Numbered from the stretch's first letter, positions 4,916-57,286 are shown. The stretch: 64,000 nucleotides of DNA from an uncultured Trueperaceae bacterium (GCA_963799485.1 CAWCXJ010000006.1:448001-512000); one strand, 5' to 3'. Numbers and translations are program-made. Notes: generated by a model from the letters alone, not told the origin.

Positions 4916-6408
<1,493 letters not shown>

Positions 6409-10542: not shown

Positions 10543-11665
10543 TACTCATTCCGGCCAAATCCCGAATCAAACGAGGGGCCACCAGTGAAAGAGGGTGTGC
10601 TGGGAGATGAGGTCAGGTTGGGTACGCAAGTAAGCGCAGCGTTTGGAGAGGACCGCTTGCAGGTCGTCAAGGGTGTCGAACACACGGTTAGCAAGGGGTT
10701 TGTCGGAGAGGTTACACAGACGTTGGGCAGGTTGCAACTCTGGCGAGTAGGGGGGCAGAAAGAGTAGTTCTACCCCTTCGGGAACGCGCAACTTATCGCT
10801 GGTATGCCAACGGGCTTGGTCCAGCACCAGGAGCATAGCATGGTCTTTAGCCGCGCCCAGGTCGTGAGCCAGGTTGTCGAGCACACAGCTTAAGCTTTCG
10901 CTGTCTACGTGTGGGAGGATGTAGAACACTGACTGGCCGGCTTCAGGATTGGCAAAAGCGTACAAGTAGCGCCACTTATAGCGGTGATGAACCGGTGCAA
11001 TAGGGCGCTCGCCTTTGGCGGCCCAGATGCGTCTAAGGATCGACTTGAGTCCTAAACGGTGTTCATCAAATGCCCACACGGATACTCGGGAGTAACGCTG
11101 CTTGAGCTGGGCTACCCGCTCAGCAAGAACGTTTTTTTGAAGTCTTCTTGCGCCGCACCATCGGCTTGGCGGTGCCAGGGTCGCGGACGCTGCAAACTGA
11201 AACCGAGACGTTCCAGGTACTCACAGCCGCGTTGCACGTGAACCGGCTTGTCGAGTTGCTGAGCCATCCAAGCCGCTACTTTCTTACCGCTCCACACGCC
11301 CCCTGCTGTGGGAGGTTGTTGCAAAGCGGCGTAAAGGGCTTTTTGTTCAGCCTCGTTTAGCAAAGGCGCGAGGCCGGGGTTGTGGTGCCGTCGGTCTTTG
11401 AGTCCACCAAGTCCAGCTTCGTTATAGCGGTGAATGATGCCGACCAGCGCGGAGTGAGCGTAAGCTGTCACCGCCCTGACTTCATCCCGACTTTTGCCCT
11501 CAGCTAATAGCCACACCGTTTGGATACGTCGCCTCTCAACGGCGTCGGTCGATGATCTATATGCCGCTTTGAGTTCTTTGACCTCGTGTTGCACCTTTAG
11601 CTCGAGCTTGGGTCTCCCTGTTCGTGCCATCTCTCTTTATACTGCTTTTAGCCGGGTTCCTTATA
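10543..11665 (-). mobile_element. IS630-family element (orfA 11112-11630, orfB ending 10567, A7 slippery site ~11132)
   Basis: HTH orfA; DEHRLG, LDQ, LPPYSPELQPAQ (catalytic E appears as Q); imperfect TIR CCGGC.AAA at both ends. Confidence 0.88.
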
Positions 11666-33975: not shown

Positions 33976-35418
33976 ATGACTGCAACAAAGGTAACAACTT
34001 TAGGTGAACTCCGCGCGACCCCCTGGGCAACCCGGGCGGGCCGCAGCGTCAAACAAGAACTCCGCGACAACCTCATCTGCCGTTTGCGCGAACATCGCCC
34101 GATATTTCCCGGCATCGTCGGTTACGAATCGACCGTAACGCCGCAAGTCGTCAACGCCGTTTTAAGCCGTCACAACTTTATCTTGCTGGGGCTGCGCGGT
34201 CAGGCCAAAACCCGCATTTTGCGGCAACTTACCGATCTGCTCGACCCCGAAATCCCGGTTTTAGCCGACAGTGAACTTAACGACGACCCTTTTGCCCCTA
34301 TCAGCGGCGAGGGCAAACGCCTCGTTGCCGAGCAAGGCGACGACGCCCGTGTCGCGTGGCTTCCCAAAGACGCCCGTTACGTCGAAAAACTGGCGACGCC
34401 GGATGTGACGGTCGCCGACATCATAGGTGACGTCGACCCGATCAAGGCCGCCAAACTCGGTGTACCGCTAGGGGACGAGCGCAGCATCTTGTACGGGCTG
34501 TTGCCACGTGCAAACCGGGGCATTTTCTCGATGAACGAGCTTCCCGACCTTTCCGGTAAGGTGCAGGTCGCCTTGTTTAACATCATGCAAGAGGGCGACG
34601 TGCAGATTAAGGGCTATCCGATCCGTTTGCCGCTCGACGTGATGCTGGTGTTTTCGGCAAACCCCGAAGACTACACGGCTAGGGGCAAAATCATCACGCC
34701 ACTTAAAGACCGCGTAGGTTCCGAAGTTCGGACGCACTACCCGGCAACTGTCGAAGAAGGCATGGCGATTACCGCGCAAGAAGCGTGGACCGACCGCGAG
34801 CAAGCGGTCAACGTTCCTGACTTTATCGCTGAAATTGCCGAAGAGGTCGCGTTTGTGGCCCGTGACGACTCCCGGGTGGACAAGCACTCGGGCGTTTCGC
34901 AGCGTCTGCCGATCAGTTTGTTGGAAAACATCGTCAGCAACGCCGAACGCCGCGCCTACACGCTGGGCGAAGACCAGCCGATTGCCCGCGTGACCGATCT
35001 TTACGGCGCGCTCGGGGCCGTGACAGGCAAGCTCGAGCTCGAGTACGAAGGTGAACTCAAAGGCGGCGAAGCGGTCGCTCGTGACATCGTGCGCCGCGCT
35101 ATCGGGCAGGTCTACAGCCGCCGCGCCGTAAACGCCGAAACTGCCGAAATTACCGACTATTTCGAGTCGGACAACAACCTCAAAGTTCCCGACACCGTGC
35201 CGACCGCGCAGCTCGTGAACGTTTTCGGGCAGGTACCGGGTCTCGTCGGCGCGGCCCGCGAACTCTCCGGCAGCCGTAACCCGCAAGACGTGGCGGTCGC
35301 TGCCGAGTTTATCTTGGAGGGTTTATACGCCCGCAAACAGGTCGCAAGAAGCGAGGAGCGCGGTTACAGCGCCGCCGAACCCGAGCTGGCGCGCCCGACC
35401 AGGCAGCGCTGGAATTAA
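33976..35418 (+). CDS. Mg-chelatase/MoxR-like AAA+ ATPase
   Basis: [22 protein letters not shown]. Confidence 0.88.
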
Positions 35419-46989: not shown

Positions 46990-48096
46990 AAGTATTTCCG
47001 TAGTAAGCTTGCCAGATGCCAAGTGCGAGGTACATCAAGCTGAGCGAGGAAGAAGACAAGCAGTTGCGTGAGATTGAGCATCAGTCGGGACTGCGCGAGA
47101 AAGTACGTTTACGAGCAAGAATTTTGCGTTTGTCGCACCGTGGGCTGAAAGCTGAAGAAATAGCGAGCTACACGGGACGTGAGTAGCGTGTTGCGCGACT
47201 TCAACCGCTGGGAGCAAAGCGGGGTCGAGGGCCTAACTGAGGGGGTGGGCAGCGGTCAGCGGAGTCCTCTAGGCGAGCAAAAGCTTCTTAACGAAAAAGC
47301 TCAGTGAGGAGCGCAGTTGGACGGCCTCACAGTTAGCTGAAGGGGACGAAGCGTTCAAGCTCAAAGTCAACCGCGAAAGTCAACCGCGAAAGTCAACCGC
47401 GAAAGTATGCGGGTGTGCTTGCACGCAATGGGCTACAGCTGGCAACGCCACCGCTACGTGCCTGTCAAACAGCCTGAAGCTGAGGTTCTAGCGGCTAAAC
47501 AAGCCGAGTTCGACAGCTTAAAAAAAGAGCCCTTCAAGGAGCGCATGGCATCCGCCTGCAAGGTGACATCCTCCTGAAATACCTGGACGAGGTGGGTTTT
47601 AGCCGGTCTTTGCCTTTGAGCTATGGTTGGCGTCCCAAAGGCAAGCCCCTAAACGTTCCCAGGCACTGGGGGGCGGCGGGTCGCATCAACCTCATCGGCA
47701 CTTTGTCCTGTACCCGAGGTACTGAGCAGCTCGCGTACCAAGTGCTTGAAGAACGTTGCTACGCAATCCATGTCAAAACGTACCTGGAAACGTTGGCGCA
47801 AGAAGCAGAGCGTCTAGCCCCAGAAACAGTCGTCATTCTCGACAACGCGGGCTTTCACCGGGCGAATCTCATTAAAGACGAACAGGATGCCTGGGCAGCT
47901 CAAGGGCTTACCCTGTGGTTTCAGCCCTCTTACTCGCCTCGGTTCAACCTCATTGAGACCGTTTGGAAAAAGCTCAAAGGCTTTCTCCTGCCCAGGCGCT
48001 GCTACAACTCTAGACAACAACTCCTGGACGCTGTGCTGGCTGCCCTTCAACTCCTCGGCGCTAAAGCTATCTCGCAGTCATAGTATGGAGATACTT
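46990..48096 (+). mobile_element. IS630-family element, degenerate (contains 3 x 13 bp AAAGTCAACCGCG at 47363-47401)
   Basis: Broken orfA from 47018; orfB DE..., DNA.FH, YSP.FN.IE..W; imperfect TIRs AAGTATTTCCGTA / TATGGAGATACTT. Confidence 0.85.
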
Positions 48097-48192
48097 AAAT
48101 CCTGTAGCAGTAGTTAAGCAGTAAACCGGCACACAATAGAACAGCCCCGCTTATCACGAGGCTTCTTTTTTACGTCCCTCACATTATTTCTT

Positions 48193-48237
48193 TGGTAGCG
48201 ATGGAGAGACTTGAACTCTCGACCTCACGATTATGAG
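48193..48237 (-). repeat. att site: 45-bp duplicate of the tRNA(CAT) 3' half
   Basis: TGGTAGCGATGGAGAGACTTGAACTCTCGACCTCACGATTATGAG is identical to 57210-57254. Confidence 0.96.
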
Positions 48238-48458
48238 GTGTATAAATCCCCTAACGCTTCATTACGCTAGATTACAACAGATGACGAGAGACCGTTACAG
48301 ACGCACTTTTACCCTCTACCCCACCCCTGTATGAATGTCTTATCACGCTACGTAACGCGCCTGTAGGTGTAAATAATGTGTAACTCGCACAGGGACTTTA
48401 TGCCGTGAGAGACGGTAAAAGTATGACGACTCGTGATGTGATGTGGTAACATGTACCA

Positions 48459-48848
48459 ATGACGGCGATAACCCCGGACAAGCTCGAGGCGAATAAAGTA
48501 TTCGCCGAGCGGATTATCGACGCCCAAAGACAAGAGGCCGACGCCGCAAAGCGAAACCTCGAGCGGGTCAAGGCGCAGCGCATCCCGCGTGACTCTGTTT
48601 TTATGCGGCGCTGGGGTTGCAGCTTGCGGCGCGTCCCCTTTTTGTACGGTGCGAACGTTACAGCCGCCGAAGTTGACCAAATTGTCAACGCGGCCCGCGC
48701 TGCTCACCGTGAGGCGATTCTAGAGGCTGGCGCGCTTCTCTTAGAGCCGCCGCCGTCGTGGGCACATGCTGACCTCAACGAGCAGCCGCGCCCCGAATTA
48801 CCACTCAGCAAAACCCCAAAAATACTGCAAAACGCCCCGAATAGCTGA
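48459..48848 (+). CDS. Hypothetical protein (element)
   Basis: 129-aa ORF at the head of the backbone operon. Confidence 0.55.
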   Translation: MTAITPDKLEANKVFAERIIDAQRQEADAAKRNLERVKAQRIPRDSVFMRRWGCSLRRVPFLYGANVTAAEVDQIVNAARAAHREAILEAGALLLEPPPSWAHADLNEQPRPELPLSKTPKILQNAPNS

Positions 48849-48936
48849 TCAAATGGCGCGGGTTTAACCCGTAAACCTTTTGATCTACCGAAGGTTTGAT
48901 CTTTCGATCATCTTCGCGTTTTGGAGCGTTTTTTTA

Positions 48937-49137
48937 ATGACAACTGAACCGCAGGGCTCGCCCTTTTACAACTACCCAGAACTTTGGATTGCGAACGAAA
49001 AGAAGATCGGCATTAACCAATTGCGCGCCTGGGGCCGGTCAAAGAAACTGAGGACGGTGCGTGTGGGCCGCAGAATCCTTATCCCAAAAACTGAGCTTGC
49101 GCGTCTCGCTGAGATTGCCGGAGGTGACGATTCATGA
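48937..49137 (+). CDS. Excisionase-like HTH DNA-binding protein
   Basis: L.TVRVGRRILIPK.EL motif. Confidence 0.75.
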   Translation: MTTEPQGSPFYNYPELWIANEKKIGINQLRAWGRSKKLRTVRVGRRILIPKTELARLAEIAGGDDS

Positions 49138-49367
49138 GAAATCCCCATCTTGCCAGAGATGGGGACGCGGCGATTCGTAAGCAGAGTTTAACACGAGGTA
49201 CGTGCTGTAATCCACGTAACTACGTGCGCCCCCGACCCCCAAGCCACCGTGAAGTTTCAAAATGTCAACAAGCAAATCACGTCGCGCTCGTGCGGCTGGA
49301 ACGTTATCTAAAGGCACTTACGGCTTACCGGTACCGCCTCGACAATCCGGGGGTACACCGTGCCTGA
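49134..49367 (+). CDS. Hypothetical protein (element)
   Basis: ATGA overlap with upstream gene; RBS GGAGG. Confidence 0.5.
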   Translation: MRNPHLARDGDAAIRKQSLTRGTCCNPRNYVRPRPPSHREVSKCQQANHVALVRLERYLKALTAYRYRLDNPGVHRA

Positions 49368-50859
49368 ACCCAAAACCCTGGAGGAGTGGGAGGCAGAGCA
49401 GGAAAGGCTCGAGCAAACAAAGGCCCGAAAGACTAAGACGCCCACTCCTAAGCCCGCCGACGATAAGCCTAATACATCCGGTCTCAAAACCGAAAAGCAG
49501 CGTGAGACGAAAGCCAAACCCCAAGCCCTGATTACTCGCTTGTCAGACGTGACCCCTCAGGATGTCTCTTGGCTCTGGCACCCGTATATCCCTCTAGGAA
49601 AGCTCACCCTCTTAGAGGGCGACCCCGGCTTAGGCAAGACGTTTATCAGTTTGACCTTAGCCGCTGCGATTACAAGAGGCTGGCCTTTACTCTCTCAGAC
49701 CGGCGCACCTGGAAACGACCTCGAGCCCGCTGATGTTCTCTATATGAGCGCAGAGGATGGTTTAGCCGACACCTTGCGCCCTCGTTTAGATGCCGCCGAC
49801 GCCGACGTAAGCCGCGTTCACGCGCTCACCGGCTGGCGGCTAGATGACGGGAACGAAGGGGTAGAGGGCGCGGTGAGTCTGGGAGACATCCCCATTCTCG
49901 AGCAAGCTCTCAGCGCTGTCAAACCCAAGCTCATCATCATCGACCCGCTTCAGGCTTACTTAGGTGCGAAAGTGGATATGCACCGTGCTAACGAGGTAAG
50001 GCCGCTTCTCTCAGCTCTTGGCAACTTGGCAGAGAAACACGAGTGCGCTGTCATCTGTATTCGTCACCTGTCCAAAGCTATGAGCCCAAAAGCGATTTAT
50101 AGCGGCATGGGGTCTATCGACTTCGCCGCCGCTGCCCGGTCGATTCTCACCGTAGGGGAACACGACGGCGAGCGCCTGTTAGCGCACGTCAAAAGCTCAC
50201 TGGCACCGCAGGGCAAGAGCATCCGCTACGAACTCCGGGATGGTTCACTCAACTGGTTAGGTATCTCGGATGTGACCGCTGAAGAGCTGAGCGGCCCCCA
50301 AATCCAAAGTGCAGAGGGTGAAAGCACCGTAGACAACGCTGTGACCTTTTTGCAGGACTTTTTAGACGACGGCGCACAACCTGCGAGCGCAGCCTTTAGA
50401 GCAGCGAAGCAAGAGGGTATATCCGAACGGACGTTGAAACGGGCCAAGTCACAGCTCGAGGTCAAAAGCCAAAGGATAAGCGCCGGGAATGACGGCGCGG
50501 GCAAATGGTCATGGTCTCTACCGTATAACAGTGGCACTCTTGCCCCCTTGCAAGCAAACCCTGTCACAGACGCGAATCCCGCAAGTGTGCCAAGTGTGCC
50601 AACTGAAGATGTGGCACTCTTGCGAAAAGAGCGTGAGGCACACAAAAATCCGCAAGAGGGCAAGGGTGCCAAGCTTTTACCCTTAGAGGCTTATGACTGT
50701 TTGCGGAAAAGACTCGAGGCTCAAGACTGGCATGTTCCAAGCGCCGGAAAGCTACGCGACTTCTACCGCCGTGCTGATTCAGGAGACCTAGAAGCGCGGG
50801 GTGCAATTGATGACTACCTACAAAACCCGCAGGTCGTGCAAGCACTTGGGGTCAACTGA
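49360..50859 (+). CDS. AAA_25 / RepA-like RecA-fold helicase with C-terminal wHTH
   Basis: WLW.PYIP.G, GDPGLGKT, AED, IIIDP, RH..K, GS....AAR. Confidence 0.85.
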   Translation: MPEPKTLEEWEAEQERLEQTKARKTKTPTPKPADDKPNTSGLKTEKQRETKAKPQALITRLSDVTPQDVSWLWHPYIPLGKLTLLEGDPGLGKTFISLTLAAAITRGWPLLSQTGAPGNDLEPADVLYMSAEDGLADTLRPRLDAADADVSRVHALTGWRLDDGNEGVEGAVSLGDIPILEQALSAVKPKLIIIDPLQAYLGAKVDMHRANEVRPLLSALGNLAEKHECAVICIRHLSKAMSPKAIYSGMGSIDFAAAARSILTVGEHDGERLLAHVKSSLAPQGKSIRYELRDGSLNWLGISDVTAEELSGPQIQSAEGESTVDNAVTFLQDFLDDGAQPASAAFRAAKQEGISERTLKRAKSQLEVKSQRISAGNDGAGKWSWSLPYNSGTLAPLQANPVTDANPASVPSVPTEDVALLRKEREAHKNPQEGKGAKLLPLEAYDCLRKRLEAQDWHVPSAGKLRDFYRRADSGDLEARGAIDDYLQNPQVVQALGVN

Positions 50860-51056
50860 TGCCCCGCGCTAGGAAACTGACACAGCCCCGTCTACTCCCT
50901 CAGCTCGAGCCCATCCGACCCGGCGACGCGCTCACTATAGGCGACCTCATTACGCGCTACGAGTGCCGGTGCGGAAACCGTGCCGAAACAGGAATCCGCC
51001 TGGACGCTGTGACCTGCGTTAAATGCGGTGCGGCGATGAAACCGGTGACATCGTGA
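50859..51056 (+). CDS. Small Zn-ribbon protein
   Basis: CRCG...CVKCG; TGATG coupling to the helicase. Confidence 0.6.
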   Translation: MPRARKLTQPRLLPQLEPIRPGDALTIGDLITRYECRCGNRAETGIRLDAVTCVKCGAAMKPVTS

Positions 51057-51153
51057 AAACGTACCCCGCCGCTCGAGCCCCGCCGACCGCTAAGCCCCTA
51101 GACCTCACCCCGTTCCTGATCCTTTGATCCCTTCAGAGAAAGTAGAGATTACA

Positions 51154-51450
51154 ATGTCCGAACTCAGCCCATTGCAGGTACAAGCGGCAAAACTGCTAGG
51201 CCGTGGCTACACCCCGACCGATGTCAAAAAACACCTCGAGCTACCCCAAACCCTTTTTGCCCAGTGGCGTGAAGATGACGACTTTAACGCCGCTGTAGAG
51301 CGCGAAAAATTCAACGAGACCGGCGCGATAGAAGGCGAAACTCTGCTCGAGGCTGCCTCAGCTTTCGGAATGCTAGACCCCGGCGCACCCATCATCACGA
51401 AAGACCCGTCAGAGCCAAGCCATTACGATCCCGCAGCGGAGGTTAAATAA
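51154..51450 (+). CDS. HTH protein (terminase-small-subunit-like N-terminus)
   Basis: LSPLQVQAAKLL..G...........W..D.DF pattern. Confidence 0.5.
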   Translation: MSELSPLQVQAAKLLGRGYTPTDVKKHLELPQTLFAQWREDDDFNAAVEREKFNETGAIEGETLLEAASAFGMLDPGAPIITKDPSEPSHYDPAAEVK

Positions 51451-52119
51451 TGCCCGCCCTAGTTATCCAAGCACGGCGGGCCGTGTCTGACGCTGAGAAA
51501 CAGCTAGCCGCTCTGGAGAAAGAACGCACGCAGCACGCCGAACAGTTGAGCGTGTGTGAAGCTGAAGAACAGGCCGTTGTTAAGGGCCGGGCCGGTCTCG
51601 ACAAGATCACCGCTGTTGGGTTACGTGCCGACGCCGCCCGGAAACAGCTCGCGCAGACCGAGGCAGATATAGCCGAGTTGCTCGAGCGGCTCCCTGACCT
51701 GTCGGATCAGCTCGAGCGTGAAGAGGTAATCAGTTTACTGGCTACCCATGCAACCGAAGGGGCAGCGTCAGAAGTGCGCTTACGGGACGCGCTGCACAAT
51801 CTAACCGAGACCATCCGGGAGCCTTTACAAAAAGTTTTAGAGGCGCACGCCGCTCACCAAATGGCGGTAGAGCGCTACAACGAACTCGGTAAAGAAGCTG
51901 TACCTGGCTACCGCTACAGTTGGCGGCTACAGCGTACAGGGTCTTAAATGGGATGATCCAAACGATCCCGACCGGAAAGCTCTCGAGCGGGAACTTCAGC
52001 GGCGCGGTTATGACCTGAATGCGGTAGTGGCTCCCTTAGTCAAACCTGCTGTAGACGACACCCTTGCCTTTGCGGTCTGGCAGCTCTACCGAAGCACCAA
52101 AGATTTGAGGGGACTCTAA
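51450..52119 (+). CDS. Coiled-coil protein, apparently frameshifted near 51930
   Basis: ORF stops at 51947 but a shifted frame (GLKWDDP...LRGL) runs to TAA overlapping the next ATG. Confidence 0.5.
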
Positions 52120-52634
52120 TGCCCCGCACCTGTAGTGTTTGCGCTCACCCGGAACGTGTTGCAATCGAGACGGCCCTGCTTGAAAATGCGCCATTACGCG
52201 ACATAGCGCGACAATTCTCAGTTTCCAAAGATGCGGTAGCGAGACACAAAGAAAGCCATATCACCGCCCGTCTAGCTTCAGCTCATGCGGCTCAAGAGGC
52301 GACTGACGCCGGTACGATTATGGACAGACTCCGGGCTTTGAACGCTGAAGTTACCGACCTGCTACAAATTGCAAAAACGGCCCGGAACCATGAGCTGAGA
52401 TTAAAGGTTCTAACACGGGCCGAATCCCAACTTGCGCTCGAGGCCAAGCTCTTATCGGAACAGCCGCTCTTGGAGCGTCAGGTCAACGAGCTTTTACAGA
52501 TCAAGATGGTTGAGGCGCTTGTCAGGCTCCGTATCCACTTCGGAGATCAGCCGGGGCTACTCAGGGAAATCTACACGGCGTTCGTAGGTGATGAACCCGC
52601 CGGACACGCGGGCCAGCGTCAGCTACCAAACTAA
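52119..52634 (+). CDS. CxxC/H Zn + HTH protein (TerS-like)
   Basis: MPRTCSVCAHPER...RDIARQFSVSKDAVARHK..H. Confidence 0.6.
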   Translation: MPRTCSVCAHPERVAIETALLENAPLRDIARQFSVSKDAVARHKESHITARLASAHAAQEATDAGTIMDRLRALNAEVTDLLQIAKTARNHELRLKVLTRAESQLALEAKLLSEQPLLERQVNELLQIKMVEALVRLRIHFGDQPGLLREIYTAFVGDEPAGHAGQRQLPN

Positions 52635-52831
52635 GTAGCCTGATCCTGTTACCACGACGCGCTACCGCTCACCCGGCGCGTCGCTAGTATTCCGTAAGTC
52701 CTTGAAAAGCTAGAGCTAGCTCCAACAATCGTGCTGTTGACCCCAGCACGATATTTAATATCAGTGCTAAGCTTTGTCAACTAAACTGTGAAGAAGGCAT
52801 GATTTGATTTGATGCATAATTTAGGAGAGGA

Positions 52832-54043
52832 ATGACGGCTCAAACGCGACGACGGGGAGAATTCAGAGTTGAGTCGCGTGCTCAGCTATTTGATCTGTTG
52901 CAAGACGTTATGGACGTCTCTTACTCTCACCTTCTTGAAGGTCGCCGCCTCGAATATGAAAGAGGGTTGCTTAAAAGCTACATACTTGAGACAGACCTAT
53001 TTCGAGATGAAGAAAAGCTCAGCAATGAGAAGAAGGTCAAGCAATTCATCAAACAGTCCCTGACACCAGAAGCCAAAGCTCGAACCCTTATTACAATTCG
53101 AGAAACAGATGAGGAAAAGTTCTATGAGATCGAATGTACAACCAACAAGCACCAATCGACTATCTACCTTGATGCAAGCACGGATGATAGGTTTTGGCTA
53201 GCCTATTCGATAAGTAATTCGACATCTACTGATTGGTGGTTGGATAGGGTTGTTTCCACGAACCCAAACATAGACTATGCATGGCTGTGGCCTCGGTTTC
53301 TAGAAGGCGTACAACAGCGAGGTCTCCCGCGTGGCTTTGGGCTGGATTATGACTACAGAAGATTTGAGGAAGAGTCAGAAGTAACGAGCTACATCAAAAT
53401 GCAATTATGGGGCGGCGCGGATACCGCAGTAGTTTATGAGACGCTCAAAGGCTTGCGAGAACTCAATGGCAAGATCGTCCTATCTAAAGTGAGGGTTAAA
53501 TCCCTTAGAGATGACGATATTGAACCAGAAAAAGAAAATTTGCATTTTGCTTTAGAGGATATTAAATATACTGGCAAGTTTACGGTTAGGGGAACTGACT
53601 TTGGTGTTCACAACAGAAACCTAAATCGTGTTCGTGCTAGCTATGCGGAAATTGTACGCAGTGTAGAAAATATGTGTGGGCTCAGTTGGGATGTAGACCA
53701 AACAGGTGGAGTTATCCTAGATGGTTACGCAATTAACTTCATTCCGCAAAACCTGACTCTGGATGTTTTGAGCTTCTGTGAACGTGTATTTAGTGGTAGT
53801 CTTCCGTTTCGGCTATTAGGCATGATCAACCTGAAGCACGATAACTACGCAACAGTCAACGTAGTGGATATGCATACAGGAGGAAAGCTTTTCTTTGAGA
53901 TTTCGCCTGATTTAATAACGGTTTATCTACCAAGTGCAACTTGTGGAAATACCATCGCTCGCTTGTATACAAATTTGCAACACTATTTGAATTCCAATTT
54001 TGAGGTTGAGGCAGACAATGGACAAAGACTCTTTCGATTCTGA
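52832..54043 (+). CDS. Cargo protein A, 403 aa, unknown function (candidate defence)
   Basis: Long AT-rich ORF, RBS AGGAGAGG; no motif recognised. Confidence 0.85.
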   Translation: MTAQTRRRGEFRVESRAQLFDLLQDVMDVSYSHLLEGRRLEYERGLLKSYILETDLFRDEEKLSNEKKVKQFIKQSLTPEAKARTLITIRETDEEKFYEIECTTNKHQSTIYLDASTDDRFWLAYSISNSTSTDWWLDRVVSTNPNIDYAWLWPRFLEGVQQRGLPRGFGLDYDYRRFEEESEVTSYIKMQLWGGADTAVVYETLKGLRELNGKIVLSKVRVKSLRDDDIEPEKENLHFALEDIKYTGKFTVRGTDFGVHNRNLNRVRASYAEIVRSVENMCGLSWDVDQTGGVILDGYAINFIPQNLTLDVLSFCERVFSGSLPFRLLGMINLKHDNYATVNVVDMHTGGKLFFEISPDLITVYLPSATCGNTIARLYTNLQHYLNSNFEVEADNGQRLFRF

Positions 54044-54956
54044 CCTAGTTAATTTATTTATTGCACTTTGTAAAGGCTCGAGAAGGCTCAGGCCACACGC
54101 AGAGAAGTTCAGTAGAGAGCTTGGATATAAAGTCTTTAGATTCGAGCCAAAATTTCCGCTCAAAAGTGGAGGATACAGTTCCCCAGATCTTATCCTTCAT
54201 TCAAAAACTTTAGGCAACGCCCTTGTCATGGAATGGACTCGGAACTCTAATATAAATACAGACGAGCGCAAGCAAAATCAGCTGAGCAAATACGTAAGGA
54301 TGGGATCGGACGATCTGCGCGAGAACGCAGGGATGCCAGCAACTTCAGCGAAGATGCATAGCGTCATAGTTGTTTTAGAACCCGCATCTTGTAAGGCTTA
54401 TATATCTTTCCTCTCAAAGCAAGGGTGGACACTTCCTGTTATGTCGTTCTTGACAGACGGCAACAAACGTACTCTAGTTAAGCAAGCGCACCATATATTG
54501 GAACCTCGCACAGAAGAATTTTTCAGGAATCATCTTGAATTCAGTGACATACCTGAAGGCTACATACCCTTCTCACTACAACACATACGCCTCTCCGATC
54601 TCGTTGAGTTAATCACTAATCACCTGATAAGTTTGATCATAAAAGGAGAAACGAAGCGCGTTGACATTGACCGGTTTTGTGAGGGATATCTTACTGGAAG
54701 CTTCAATATTTTCAAACACTTAGGTCACGAAAAAAAGATGGATCTAAGAAATAAAACTGTGAGGATCCTTCAGATTATTGCCCAAGATGAAAAAACTAGC
54801 GATCTAATCTCTCGAACTGGTAGAAAATCGGACACCTGGGAGTTGCTTGATAGAAAGGATTTTCAGTCAAAGTATTCTTTTTATCACAGTGGGCTGATTG
54901 CTATCGTCAATAAGATAAAAGACAATAATCCTATACAGGGTACTTTGTTTGACTGA
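54018..54956 (+). CDS. Cargo protein B, PD-(D/E)xK-like nuclease fold candidate
   Basis: SPDLIL...LVMEWT; C-terminal QGTLFD; overlaps gene A by 26 bp. Confidence 0.75.
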   Translation: MDKDSFDSDLVNLFIALCKGSRRLRPHAEKFSRELGYKVFRFEPKFPLKSGGYSSPDLILHSKTLGNALVMEWTRNSNINTDERKQNQLSKYVRMGSDDLRENAGMPATSAKMHSVIVVLEPASCKAYISFLSKQGWTLPVMSFLTDGNKRTLVKQAHHILEPRTEEFFRNHLEFSDIPEGYIPFSLQHIRLSDLVELITNHLISLIIKGETKRVDIDRFCEGYLTGSFNIFKHLGHEKKMDLRNKTVRILQIIAQDEKTSDLISRTGRKSDTWELLDRKDFQSKYSFYHSGLIAIVNKIKDNNPIQGTLFD

Positions 54957-55009
54957 AAGGAGAAGCAACTAAATGAGCTCACGTTGACATGCGCTATTCA
55001 CTTGACCAC

Positions 55010-55045
55010 AAAAAGACCCCCGACGCTAAACCGGGGGCTTGCTTT
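55010..55045. terminator. Probable bidirectional intrinsic terminator
   Basis: AAAAAG-ACCCCCG...CGGGGG-CTTGCTTT hairpin between convergent units. Confidence 0.6.
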
Positions 55046-55286
55046 GAATTGTAAGTTTAACTAAGTGCCTCGAGCGCCTCTAGCTTCAGAGCACACGTTT
55101 CAACTCGCGTCTAGCAGCGTTCTCTACACATGCCGCTGCTAGACGTTCAGCCTGACTACTTTGACCTAACGCTGATACCTGCCTATGAAGGGCTACAGCT
55201 CCGATAGCGGGTTACTGCCCGATCTACAACCTCTTCAGGGGCAAGATCAAAGATCATTGATCCAGTATTTGCAGAGGTATTCAAGC

Positions 55287-55568
55287 TCATGCGGCGACCG
55301 CCAAAGTATTTACAGCCGGGACAAGGCTGTGAACCTCATCCCAGACGCCGTAATCGACCCGCTGCACAGAAGTCTCAAAAGCGTAGCGGTGTACCGGAAA
55401 AACGACCTCATCACGCTTTAGGTCAGCTAAGGCGACGCGTCGGTTTACTTTGTCGGCGCTCTCGATGATGGCGTAACCAAAGGTGAGGGTGCTCGAGACC
55501 GCTGTGATAATGCCGAGGCCGCGCACCGTTGCGCCTAAAAGTTTGGTTTGTCTGGGTGTATTCTGCAT
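55287..55568 (-). CDS. Hypothetical protein divergent from the XRE HTH
   Basis: 93-aa ORF downstream of a consensus leftward promoter. Confidence 0.5.
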   Translation of the reverse strand: MQNTPRQTKLLGATVRGLGIITAVSSTLTFGYAIIESADKVNRRVALADLKRDEVVFPVHRYAFETSVQRVDYGVWDEVHSLVPAVNTLAVAA

Positions 55569-55626
55569 TTGGAACTTCGTTTCTAGCTAAGGGATAACTT
55601 TGGACGGTTGCCCTTAGCTGTCTGTA

Positions 55627-55668
55627 ATGATAACAATTATTGACAGTGGTGTCAATATCGTATACCAT
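55627..55668. promoter_or_regulatory. Back-to-back sigma70 promoters with palindromic operator TATTGACA-N4-TGTCAATA
   Basis: Plus strand TTGACA-17-TACCAT; minus strand TTGACA-17-TATCAT. Confidence 0.75.
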
Positions 55669-55675
55669 GTCTAAT

Positions 55676-55918
55676 ATGGGAATGAACGAAAACATCAGAC
55701 AAACGGTGCGTAACACCATGAACGCCAAAGACGTAAGTACCTACAAACTGGCAGAGCAGGCTGGTATGTCTCAGCCCAACGTGGCGCGCGCGCTTACCGG
55801 ACGATCCGGGAGTATCCCGACAACGTGGCAGCGCATCTTGGACGCGTTAGGGCTCGAGCTGGTAGCTGTACCCAAAGGAACCGACGTAGCCAAGCTTTTG
55901 GCAGAGAGAGAGGGGTAA
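55676..55918 (+). CDS. XRE-family HTH regulator (probably leaderless)
   Basis: STYKLAEQAGMSQPNVAR.L.G; W..ILDALGLEL. Confidence 0.85.
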   Translation: MGMNENIRQTVRNTMNAKDVSTYKLAEQAGMSQPNVARALTGRSGSIPTTWQRILDALGLELVAVPKGTDVAKLLAEREG

Positions 55919-55920
55919 CG

Positions 55921-57114
55921 ATGGCGAGACGTAAAAGCACACGGCGCGGTAAGGGTGAGGGTTCTGTATTTGAGTTTGAACGTAACTATAAACAGAAAGA
56001 CGGCTCTATCGTTGTCCGTACCGGTTGGGAGGGTAAGGTCACAGTCGGTTATGACGAAAACGGCAAGCAGCGTTTTAAGAGCGTGTACGGCAAAACGCAG
56101 GGTGAAACACTGGCTAAAGTTGCCGAGATTAAACAGCGGCTCGTAAATGGCACCTATACGGATGTCAAGCTCACTGTCGGCGAATACTTAGAGCAGTGGC
56201 TAAAAGAGAAAGAGCGTAGTGTCAAACCGCGTACCGCGATGCTCTACCGGGAGCAAGCCGAGCGGTACGTCATTCCTAAAGTGGGTAAGGTCAAGCTCGA
56301 GAAGCTCACGCCCTTACACCTTCAGCGGATGATTAGCGAGTTAGCTGACGAGATCGGCATACCGACAGCAAACAAGGCCCGTACCCTTATGTTTGCCGCG
56401 CTAAAACAGGCGGTACGGTGGCAACTCATTCACCGGAACCCGTGTGAAGCTGTTGCCAAACTAAAAGAGACCCGGAAAGAGATGATTCTATGGACGCCCG
56501 CCGAAACCGTACAGTTCTTAGAAGCGGCTCGACCTCATAGACTTTACGCCGCGTTCTATCTGGCTGTGTTTGCCGGGTTACGCCGGGGTGAGCTGCTAGG
56601 TTTGCGCTGGAAAGACCTCACCGGCCCGGTGCTGAGCGTTCGTCAATCCCTCACCGTCTTAGGTGGTACACCTCACTTCACGACCCCCAAGACGCGCAAG
56701 GGGGAGCGGTACGTCACCGTCTCCCCTGACGTGCTCGAGGTACTCGCACAACATCGGCTGATTCAAGAGGCAGAGGCTAGGGCGCTGGGCGATGCCTGGA
56801 CAGATACGGGGCTCATCTTTACAACCGAGATCGGGACGCTGATTCACCCCCGGAACTTTGAACGCAGTTTCAAGGGACTACTGAAGGATGCCGACGTAAC
56901 TACGGCCCGGTTACACGACCTGAGACACCTACACGTCTCGCTACTCGTTTCTAAGGGGTTTGACCCGCGCTCGATAGCCGACCGGGTAGGCCATACGAAC
57001 CCAAGCTTTACGCTCGACGTGTACAGCCACATGTTTGCGAATCAGCGGGCACAGGCCGCTGTAGGGATGGCTGACCTACTCGGCACGGGCGCACAACAGC
57101 GGGAAACGAACTAA
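55921..57114 (+). CDS. Tyrosine recombinase/integrase
   Basis: N-terminal arm-binding region; catalytic R (GLRRGE), K, HDLR, H, Y. Confidence 0.96.
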   Translation: MARRKSTRRGKGEGSVFEFERNYKQKDGSIVVRTGWEGKVTVGYDENGKQRFKSVYGKTQGETLAKVAEIKQRLVNGTYTDVKLTVGEYLEQWLKEKERSVKPRTAMLYREQAERYVIPKVGKVKLEKLTPLHLQRMISELADEIGIPTANKARTLMFAALKQAVRWQLIHRNPCEAVAKLKETRKEMILWTPAETVQFLEAARPHRLYAAFYLAVFAGLRRGELLGLRWKDLTGPVLSVRQSLTVLGGTPHFTTPKTRKGERYVTVSPDVLEVLAQHRLIQEAEARALGDAWTDTGLIFTTEIGTLIHPRNFERSFKGLLKDADVTTARLHDLRHLHVSLLVSKGFDPRSIADRVGHTNPSFTLDVYSHMFANQRAQAAVGMADLLGTGAQQRETN

Positions 57115-57209
57115 AATCCTGTAGGTGTAATTAAGGTGTAAACTGGCACACAAGAGAAGCGCCCCACACTTAGCGGGGCTTCTTTTTTGCGTCTCTGACG
57201 TTGTTTCTT

Positions 57210-57286
57210 TGGTAGCGATGGAGAGACTTGAACTCTCGACCTCACGATTATGAGTCGTGCGCTCTAACCAGCTGAGCTACATCGCC
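57210..57286 (-). tRNA. tRNA with CAT anticodon (probably elongator Met; Ile2 not excluded)
   Basis: Cloverleaf GGCGATG...CTCATAA...TTCAAGT...CATCGCT-A-CCA. Confidence 0.94.

Follow-up and report, generated by a model that had tools for sequence, protein, structure and literature searches.

A 64,000-nucleotide stretch from an uncultured Trueperaceae bacterium (GCA_963799485.1, CAWCXJ010000006.1:448001-512000; hereafter the window) carries an element of about 9 kb inserted in a tRNA(CAT) gene. We propose that this element probably works as a satellite of the phage-inducible chromosomal island (PICI) type, whose own small terminase (TerS) recruits the large terminase (TerL) of a helper phage, so that the element is packaged in helper capsids. 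The proposal centers on the protein encoded at position 52119 (52119), whose C-terminal tail appears to bear a weak resemblance to the TerS tails of two prophages resident in the same genome (G000). Since its TerS tail resembles theirs and it has no motor or capsid genes of its own, the element likely borrows the packaging motor of these prophages. An earlier account made from the DNA alone (the sequence-only reading) had described a helper-dependent satellite; the TerS-position family, two candidate helpers and sister elements without a recognisable virion module lend this support, with the amendment that this copy is a TerL-less derivative of elements that carry a split TerL.

The assignment of 52119 as a likely small terminase is based on gene context and the layout of its predicted structure. 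Scans of viral and genome collections with single proteins gave no match. An alignment of 33 homologues was used to find 61 viral loci, 58 of which have a downstream open reading frame (ORF), and in 45 of these 58 (some of them near-duplicate loci) that ORF matches a terminase family of Pfam at E ≤ 1e-4. Among 80 metagenome loci of the family, 62 extend at least 300 bp downstream, and a hidden Markov model (HMM) built from the TerLs found earlier detects TerL downstream in 58 of the 62, many from similar soil sets. The homologue overlaps the TerL start in two cultured phages, MMP17 (Meiothermus) and Riverbug (Thermus), and in phage Blf4 it lies three genes upstream of TerL. The MMP17 and Riverbug genes, directly upstream of TerL, share a homologous N-terminal half with 52119 (35–39% over ~86 residues); unlike the element, these are full phages with portal and capsid, their gene is labelled hypothetical, and the Riverbug tail is of the type found in the sister elements described below. 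The AlphaFold2 model of 52119 (pLDDT 78.6, pTM 0.39) consists of a helix-turn-helix (HTH), a long helical hairpin and a C-terminal extension; HTH plus helical hairpin is the layout described for TerS (PMC9611059).

Two annotations in this family deserve comment. In the Riverbug record (L279:4001-4483 and 5839-6243) the name TerS is given to the gene that follows TerL; the protein so named has no PHROG match, the main text of the Riverbug paper mentions neither TerS nor terminase (PMC11437467), and the gene marked 'hypothetical', which overlaps the start of TerL, is the better TerS candidate. In addition, phrog_645, named 'Rnase E', matches TerS-position proteins (L186, E 3e-12; L187), and this name may be a mislabel.

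We compared the two halves of 52119 separately with its relatives (29 of 33 rows of the alignment; four were not splittable and two split too late). Residues 1-112 are 53% identical to the TerS of the sister element L096 and 18–20% identical to the prophage proteins, whereas residues 113-171 score -11 against the sister TerS and 40-41 against the prophage proteins, which give the best tail scores outside the window's own four-member clade. Among the non-self ORFs of the 20,901 searched, the two prophage TerS are the best matches to a profile built from the four close tails (E 0.015 and 0.017; next 1.9); they remain the best when the window sequence is removed (E 0.11), and a control profile of the sister-type tail places neither in its top 8. 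Conversely, with a helper-tail profile the top three of 100 family tails are those of P0004, P0002 and the window protein. The global alignment of the tail with that of the prophage on contig C3 scores 35.5, a value reached by none of 2000 shuffles (30 of 2000 for G303), and hhalign gives 92.9% (E 3.8e-7) with its highest confidence in the tail. Trees of the N-terminal and C-terminal parts place the window clade differently, on 57 columns and with long branches. The full alternative tail is common to three other proteins (54–59% identity). In lambda and P22 the C-terminal region of TerS binds TerL (PMC9611059), and TerS of Staphylococcus aureus pathogenicity islands (SaPIs) steers packaging from the SaPI's own pac site (PMC6092414). 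From the gene context, this known role of the TerS C-terminus and the weak sequence match, we infer that 52119 would dock on a helper TerL.

A helper-like tail would also suit a dominant-negative decoy. In that case the element would be an unpackaged integrative element that spreads by another route, for example transformation, and 52119 would poison the helper TerS ring or TerL, or serve as a DNA-binding regulator. The defensive appearance of the adjoining cargo and the failure of 52119 to match a TerS HMM or fold fit such a role; on the other hand, the N-terminal DNA-binding part comes from an element lineage otherwise paired with its own TerL, the position of the family upstream of TerL is near constant, and no relaxase or conjugation gene was found in the element. 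We give this explanation little credence.

A search for a helper elsewhere in the genome, as the sequence-only reading had suggested, was productive. Using tblastn with viral-locus proteins and a Phage_capsid search, we located two prophage-like regions in G000, on contig C3 (TerL, scaffold, major head protein and a 1978-aa ORF) and at C2:1-~61 kb (TerL, portal, major head protein and a 2199-aa ORF); Pfam searches of the genome for Terminase_6N, Phage_portal and TerL_ATPase gave no match and missed both. The two TerLs are nearly identical, and the 168-aa TerS-position genes, 89% alike, overlap the TerL starts. Both regions are candidate helpers of the element. The only DNA that they share with it, in a search for pac sites, is a single 16-mer inside the integrase gene. 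The two prophage-like regions are related and long-tailed; their TerS, TerL and tail genes are nearly identical, their portal and capsid modules differ, and the last C3 genes are identical to genes near the C2 start. The C2 prophage has at its edge an XRE gene (C2:60636-60854) that is 42% identical to the XRE gene of the element, a possible route of regulatory cross-talk.

Under the satellite proposal, the cycle would run as follows. Integration in tRNA-Met is evident from the DNA itself. A switch formed by the XRE gene and its divergent neighbor would govern induction, after which Int and Xis would excise the element and the AAA_25 helicase would replicate it with a borrowed primase. With its own HTH, TerS would then bind the element at a pac site, while its C-terminal ~59 residues would dock on the helper TerL.

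Several observations weigh against this proposal. No TerS family HMM matches 52119 in Pfam, PHROGs or NCBIfam, which yield HTH hints only. Foldseek returned nothing for its model at E ≤ 0.001 in PDB or BFVD, and a VIA fold search gave generic helical hairpins, with the TerS of phage 44RR (Z 7.3) among unrelated ties and not used here as support; for 52119, the structure search advised by the sequence-only reading produced no specific match. The depositors of Riverbug gave the name TerS to another gene and left the homologue 'hypothetical'. The tail likeness was noticed post hoc, the local match is short (11 of 31 residues identical), and the two prophage matches count once because the proteins are 89% alike. 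A five-sequence helper-tail profile leaves the window protein outside the top 8 ORFs of the genome. The G303 TerS has a related tail, yet the next ORF is unlike the C3 TerL (E 8.5), and L098 has a C3-related TerL (3e-33) but a sister-type tail; because of these two cases, tail type and TerL type do not cleanly co-vary. No excision junction appeared in the one low-share contig run (word share 0.06). Primase queries from four relatives found no primase stretch in the window, L096 and L010 do have a primase, and the coiled-coil gene upstream of TerS may be frameshifted; an open frame without a start (51871-52119) ends on the TerS start.

The relatives of the element bear on how these losses are to be read. 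A TerS profile matches in 21 of 364 genomes of the phylum, with strong matches in seven, G000 among them. The TerS loci are prophage-like in four genomes of another family, and the three that were read (L097, L098, L101) have TerL and head genes next; the L098 prophage (same order) is 90.5% identical to Riverbug, a Thermus phage, which indirectly supports the phylum assignment. L096, from the same genus, is a 13.6-kb sister element in the same tRNA (identities in Table 1). Immediately after its TerS come the separate ATPase and nuclease genes of a split TerL, and then cargo. Of 128 family genomes, 11 have the split TerL ATPase at E ≤ 1e-10 (8 of these at E < 1e-50), and we read all 11 loci (L010, L096, L100, L270-L277). 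An integrase lies within 6 kb after TerL in 10 of them, the eleventh being a 2.3-kb contig. No head, portal or tail family was found in the subset of sister ORFs selected for scanning, and no virion or conjugation module was recognisable between TerL and integrase in the sisters examined; full modules of this kind in relatives would, according to the sequence-only reading, have pointed to a deleted prophage or an integrative and mobilizable element.

The window element shares gene order and TerS family with these capsid-less elements, and with L096 also the tRNA and a 90% identical integrase; it differs in having no TerL or primase, another TerS tail and other cargo. Because a cargo pair occupies the slot where L096 has TerL, and no TerL or TerL remnant is present in the window, we regard the element as a TerL-less member of the split-TerL family; no split-type TerL was found in G000. 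A second tRNA(CAT) element of the genome (C8:27831-40400; L182) contains a primase in two ORFs, an AAA helicase, a Zn-ribbon and a coiled-coil gene. It too is without TerL, and its TerS slot is filled by a different gene of ~100 aa. The family of this gene stands directly before split TerL in L270, L271, L276 and L277, yet is without TerL in C8 and L011, so TerL has been lost more than once. In these TerL-less C8 and L011 loci, the gene after the TerS slot (34722-35150 and 10669-11130) begins with a short helix-like stretch that by eye resembles the split-TerL N-termini of L271 and L277, and that is possibly a TerS-binding arm kept on another protein.

The same losses could mean that the element is a decaying copy of the TerS plus split-TerL family, deprived of TerL and primase and with a broken coiled-coil gene, that survives as a defence island and moves rarely or not at all. 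Consistent with decay, the sisters have both primase and TerL, a start-less frame lies behind the coiled-coil gene, insertion sequence (IS) copies flank the element on both sides next to a relic of an earlier element, and the C8 element has a split primase. Decay fits less well with identical att repeats, an intact integrase and helicase, the absence of any TerL remnant, and the recurrence of primase-less AAA_25 elements (L009, L011); moreover, an alternative tail kept whole in three other proteins points to a maintained lineage. We consider decay unlikely and favor a working satellite, which would have arisen from a capsid-less ancestor with TerS and split TerL by TerL loss, tail replacement and acquisition of a defence-like pair in the TerL slot, in an order that we can only suggest.

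The boundaries of the element agree with the sequence-only reading. Its ends are exact 51-bp repeats, 45 bp of which coincide with the 3' part of the tRNA(CAT) identified by ARAGORN, and the 18-mer of the tRNA end has only one further site in the 3.66-Mb genome. The other two CAT tRNAs of the genome, presumably initiator-like (C8) and Ile2-like (C1) by tRNA identity rules, leave elongator tRNA-Met as the probable identity of this one. Similarity between the two ends continues beyond the repeats for ~95 bp left of the left att at lower identity (145 nt, 85%; 48093-48237 versus 57110-57254). Because of this extension, and because the matching position in L096 holds the C-terminal remnant of an integrase, the left-flank stretch is likely left over from a related element that earlier occupied this tRNA, cut by the neighboring IS630-type transposase (47016-48083; DDE_3 match). 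The frame of this transposase is broken by four tandem 13-bp units (47360-47406). The D4 repeats, whose copies at 48360 and 57118 are 92% identical, are likely integrase arm-type sites. The predicted joining of the integrase module to the head of the backbone across attP is geometrically correct, but a hairpin followed by a T-run (57161-57189) lies between the integrase stop and the att core and makes read-through doubtful.

Table 1. Features of the element and its immediate flanks (window positions).
Feature	Position	Strand	Evidence
Relic left of att: copy of integrase end, arm-type site and terminator	48093..48186	none	Part of the 145-nt, 85% repeat
Far att repeat (tRNA 3' part + 6 bp)	48187..48237	none	Exact 51-bp match to 57204-57254
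Putative integrase arm-type site	48360..48383	+	Repeat family D4; second copy 57118-57141, variant at 48101
129-aa ORF, head of backbone operon	48459..48848	+	Without family match; last 27 aa 59% identical to same L096 slot
Excisionase-like HTH_17 protein	48937..49137	+	PF12728 5.7e-4, TIGR01764 1.2e-3, both below cut-off; 81% to L096
77-aa ORF between xis and helicase	49134..49367	+	Overlaps -4 and -8; first 25 aa 64% to L096
AAA_25 helicase without primase domain	49360..50859	+	PF13481 3.2e-36
Zn-ribbon protein, kept in sister elements	50859..51056	+	75% to C8 element, 56% L096, 55% L011
Lone HTH protein, 98 aa, acidic tail	51154..51450	+	PF13022 0.083 only
Coiled-coil protein, 165 aa, upstream of TerS	51450..51947	+	Without homologue; possibly frameshifted
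Likely small terminase (TerS) by context, 171 aa	52119..52634	+	TerL adjoins in homologue loci; HTH + helical hairpin model
Cargo gene A, 403 aa	52832..54043	+	PF25924 / phrog_22469; predicted alpha/beta protein, weak CENP-L/RdgC-like match
Cargo gene B, ~312 aa	54018..54956	+	Family with presumed PD-(D/E)xK-like pattern; paired with gene A
Divergent 93-aa ORF, opposite XRE-int	55287..55568	-	68–77% to C8, G275, G005 copies
XRE-family HTH regulator	55676..55918 (longest ORF from 55640; start uncertain)	+	HTH_31 PF13560 3.5e-5, phrog_8522 1.5e-8; HTH_3 below cut-off
Intact tyrosine integrase	55921..57114	+	Phage_integrase 9e-18, phrog_1 1.5e-68, catalytic motifs; 90% to L096 integrase, same tRNA
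tRNA-side att repeat	57204..57254	none	Exact 51-bp match to 48187-48237
tRNA(CAT), likely elongator tRNA-Met	57210..57286	-	ARAGORN

Family scans of the 13-14 element ORFs against Pfam, PHROGs and NCBIfam upheld most of the gene content given by the sequence-only reading: the intact integrase and XRE regulator, the excisionase-like gene (with matches below cut-off), the helicase, the Zn-ribbon and coiled-coil proteins and two HTH ORFs were all present, and no capsid, portal, tail, TerL, relaxase or primase-domain match was found. Nor did Pfam or NCBIfam reveal a conjugation module or relaxase, as would characterize an integrative and mobilizable or conjugative element. Other details required revision. 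The genes had been described as mostly coupled, and translational coupling is seen at four of seven backbone junctions. Of two HTH proteins taken as TerS-like, 52119 belongs to a TerL-adjacent family, whereas 51154, which has six non-self relatives at E ≤ 0.001 among 1.84 billion representatives, was rejected as a second TerS for want of an oligomerisation region and of gene context. The cargo pair and the divergent ORF had gone unreported. The helicase matches primase/helicase PHROGs across the helicase part only. In several relatives a coiled-coil gene likewise fills the slot before TerS, with five slot proteins weakly similar or not similar; considered as a possible size determinant like Sid, TcaP or CpmB, the coiled-coil protein of the element has no homologue and no PDB match at the sequence level. 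The divergent ORF is conserved in other tRNA elements, and promoter-like sites stand back to back between it and the XRE gene (55627-55668), within a total of eight such sites that is not above chance (6.3 ± 2.3 in shuffles). The regulation module consists of the XRE HTH, the HTH_17 gene and this divergent promoter-like pair, with no AlpA, MerR or Stl match in Pfam or PHROGs.

The 2.1-kb cargo pair (52832-54956) is low in GC (0.43 versus 0.56) and is likely a defence system, a candidate for an undescribed one. The 95 non-self relatives of gene A come from bacteria and archaea, and every one carries PF25924. At 54 genome loci of gene A (L124-L177), a phmmer match to gene B adjoins in 33, and 38 of the downstream ORFs form one cluster. 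A PADLOC match (E ≤ 1e-25) occurs in one of the two nearest large ORFs on either side in 10 of the 30 longer loci, a count without a background control. The two cargo genes themselves have no PADLOC match at E ≤ 0.1 (PADLOC-DB 2.0.0, 2023). Gene B has no match in Pfam, PHROGs, PADLOC or NCBIfam and none in PDB by profile, and its Atlas neighbors are mostly unnamed, one set carrying PF27326; its family shows what we take to be a PD-(D/E)xK-like pattern, in which Lys is replaced by Thr in the window copy. A CENP-L/Iml3 (E 3e-4 to 8e-4, TM ≤ 0.29; Z 7.2) or RdgC (Z 6.6) fold for gene A was rejected as within the background range. The cassette spans bacterial and archaeal phyla and often stands beside restriction-modification genes. 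Among other cargo, L096 holds a nucleotidyltransferase-like gene with a partner (L096:14338-15802; phrog_17525) and a second, partial XRE-integrase module. Further tRNA-linked integrase elements of G000 lie at C11:14330-19185, C7:467000-490600, C7:542200-550500 and C8:371000-375500, several of them with restriction-modification-like or toxin-antitoxin-like cargo by ORF reading.

The element resembles PICIs and SaPIs (PMC10085698, PMC6092414) in its tRNA-site att repeats, tyrosine integrase, HTH regulator, xis-like gene, helicase, TerS, lack of structural and lysis genes, size of ~9 kb and cargo after terS. It differs in that the integrated form has XRE-int at one end and the backbone at the other, both on one strand, its TerS family is without an HMM, and its closest relatives carry TerL. 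Relative to the SatelliteFinder PICI core, the element has an integrase and att sites, a small terminase recognised by context and model layout and not by HMM or fold search, and no tail, holin, portal or head-tail genes. The PICI blueprint invoked by the sequence-only reading therefore stands as regards integrase, TerS and missing structural genes; the primase-replicase module is only half present because there is no primase, and the nearest kin are capsid-less elements with their own split TerL. Strict PICI membership is incomplete, as there is no primase; family searches of the element gave no AlpA/MerR/Stl match and no match to a capsid-morphogenesis gene, a gene that many SaPIs lack as well. 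Capsid-forming PICIs (cf-PICIs) have members with TerS, and with TerL as do the sisters of the element, but bring their own capsid, portal and head-tail genes, none of which was found in the element or the scanned sister ORFs. Marine virion-encapsidated integrative mobile elements (VEIMEs; PMC9618062) share the integrase, primase/helicase and excisionase, and set a precedent with a TerS whose nearest kin are found in co-occurring phages; they were recovered from virions, whereas the window element is known from sequence alone and only its TerS tail is phage-like.

A satellite survey places more than 99.9% of PICIs in chromosomes of Proteobacteria or Firmicutes, and its main text does not contain the word 'Deinococcus' (PMC10085698). 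Our literature search, which did not extend to most subscription journals or to the SatelliteFinder supplements, yielded no description of a satellite from Deinococcota and none of a capsid-less element that encodes a large terminase itself.

Finally, we tentatively suggest a broader picture, in which capsid-less tRNA elements are common in this Deinococcota family and follow two packaging strategies, either keeping their own TerS with a split TerL or dropping TerL and exchanging the TerS tail for the TerL-docking tail of the helper. The window element would be a working example of the second kind, paired with two prophages and carrying an undescribed two-gene anti-phage system in the TerL slot. 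If true, this would place a satellite together with its helper in a single genome, in a phylum without a described satellite in the literature searched, and would provide a same-tRNA, before-and-after comparison of the origin of a TerS-only (SaPI-like) satellite, with TerL lost and the TerS tail re-addressed. TerS–TerL specificity would be open to a simple tail swap, a widespread 'hypothetical' family would gain the label TerS, and a bacterial-archaeal two-gene cassette would be flagged as a defence candidate.

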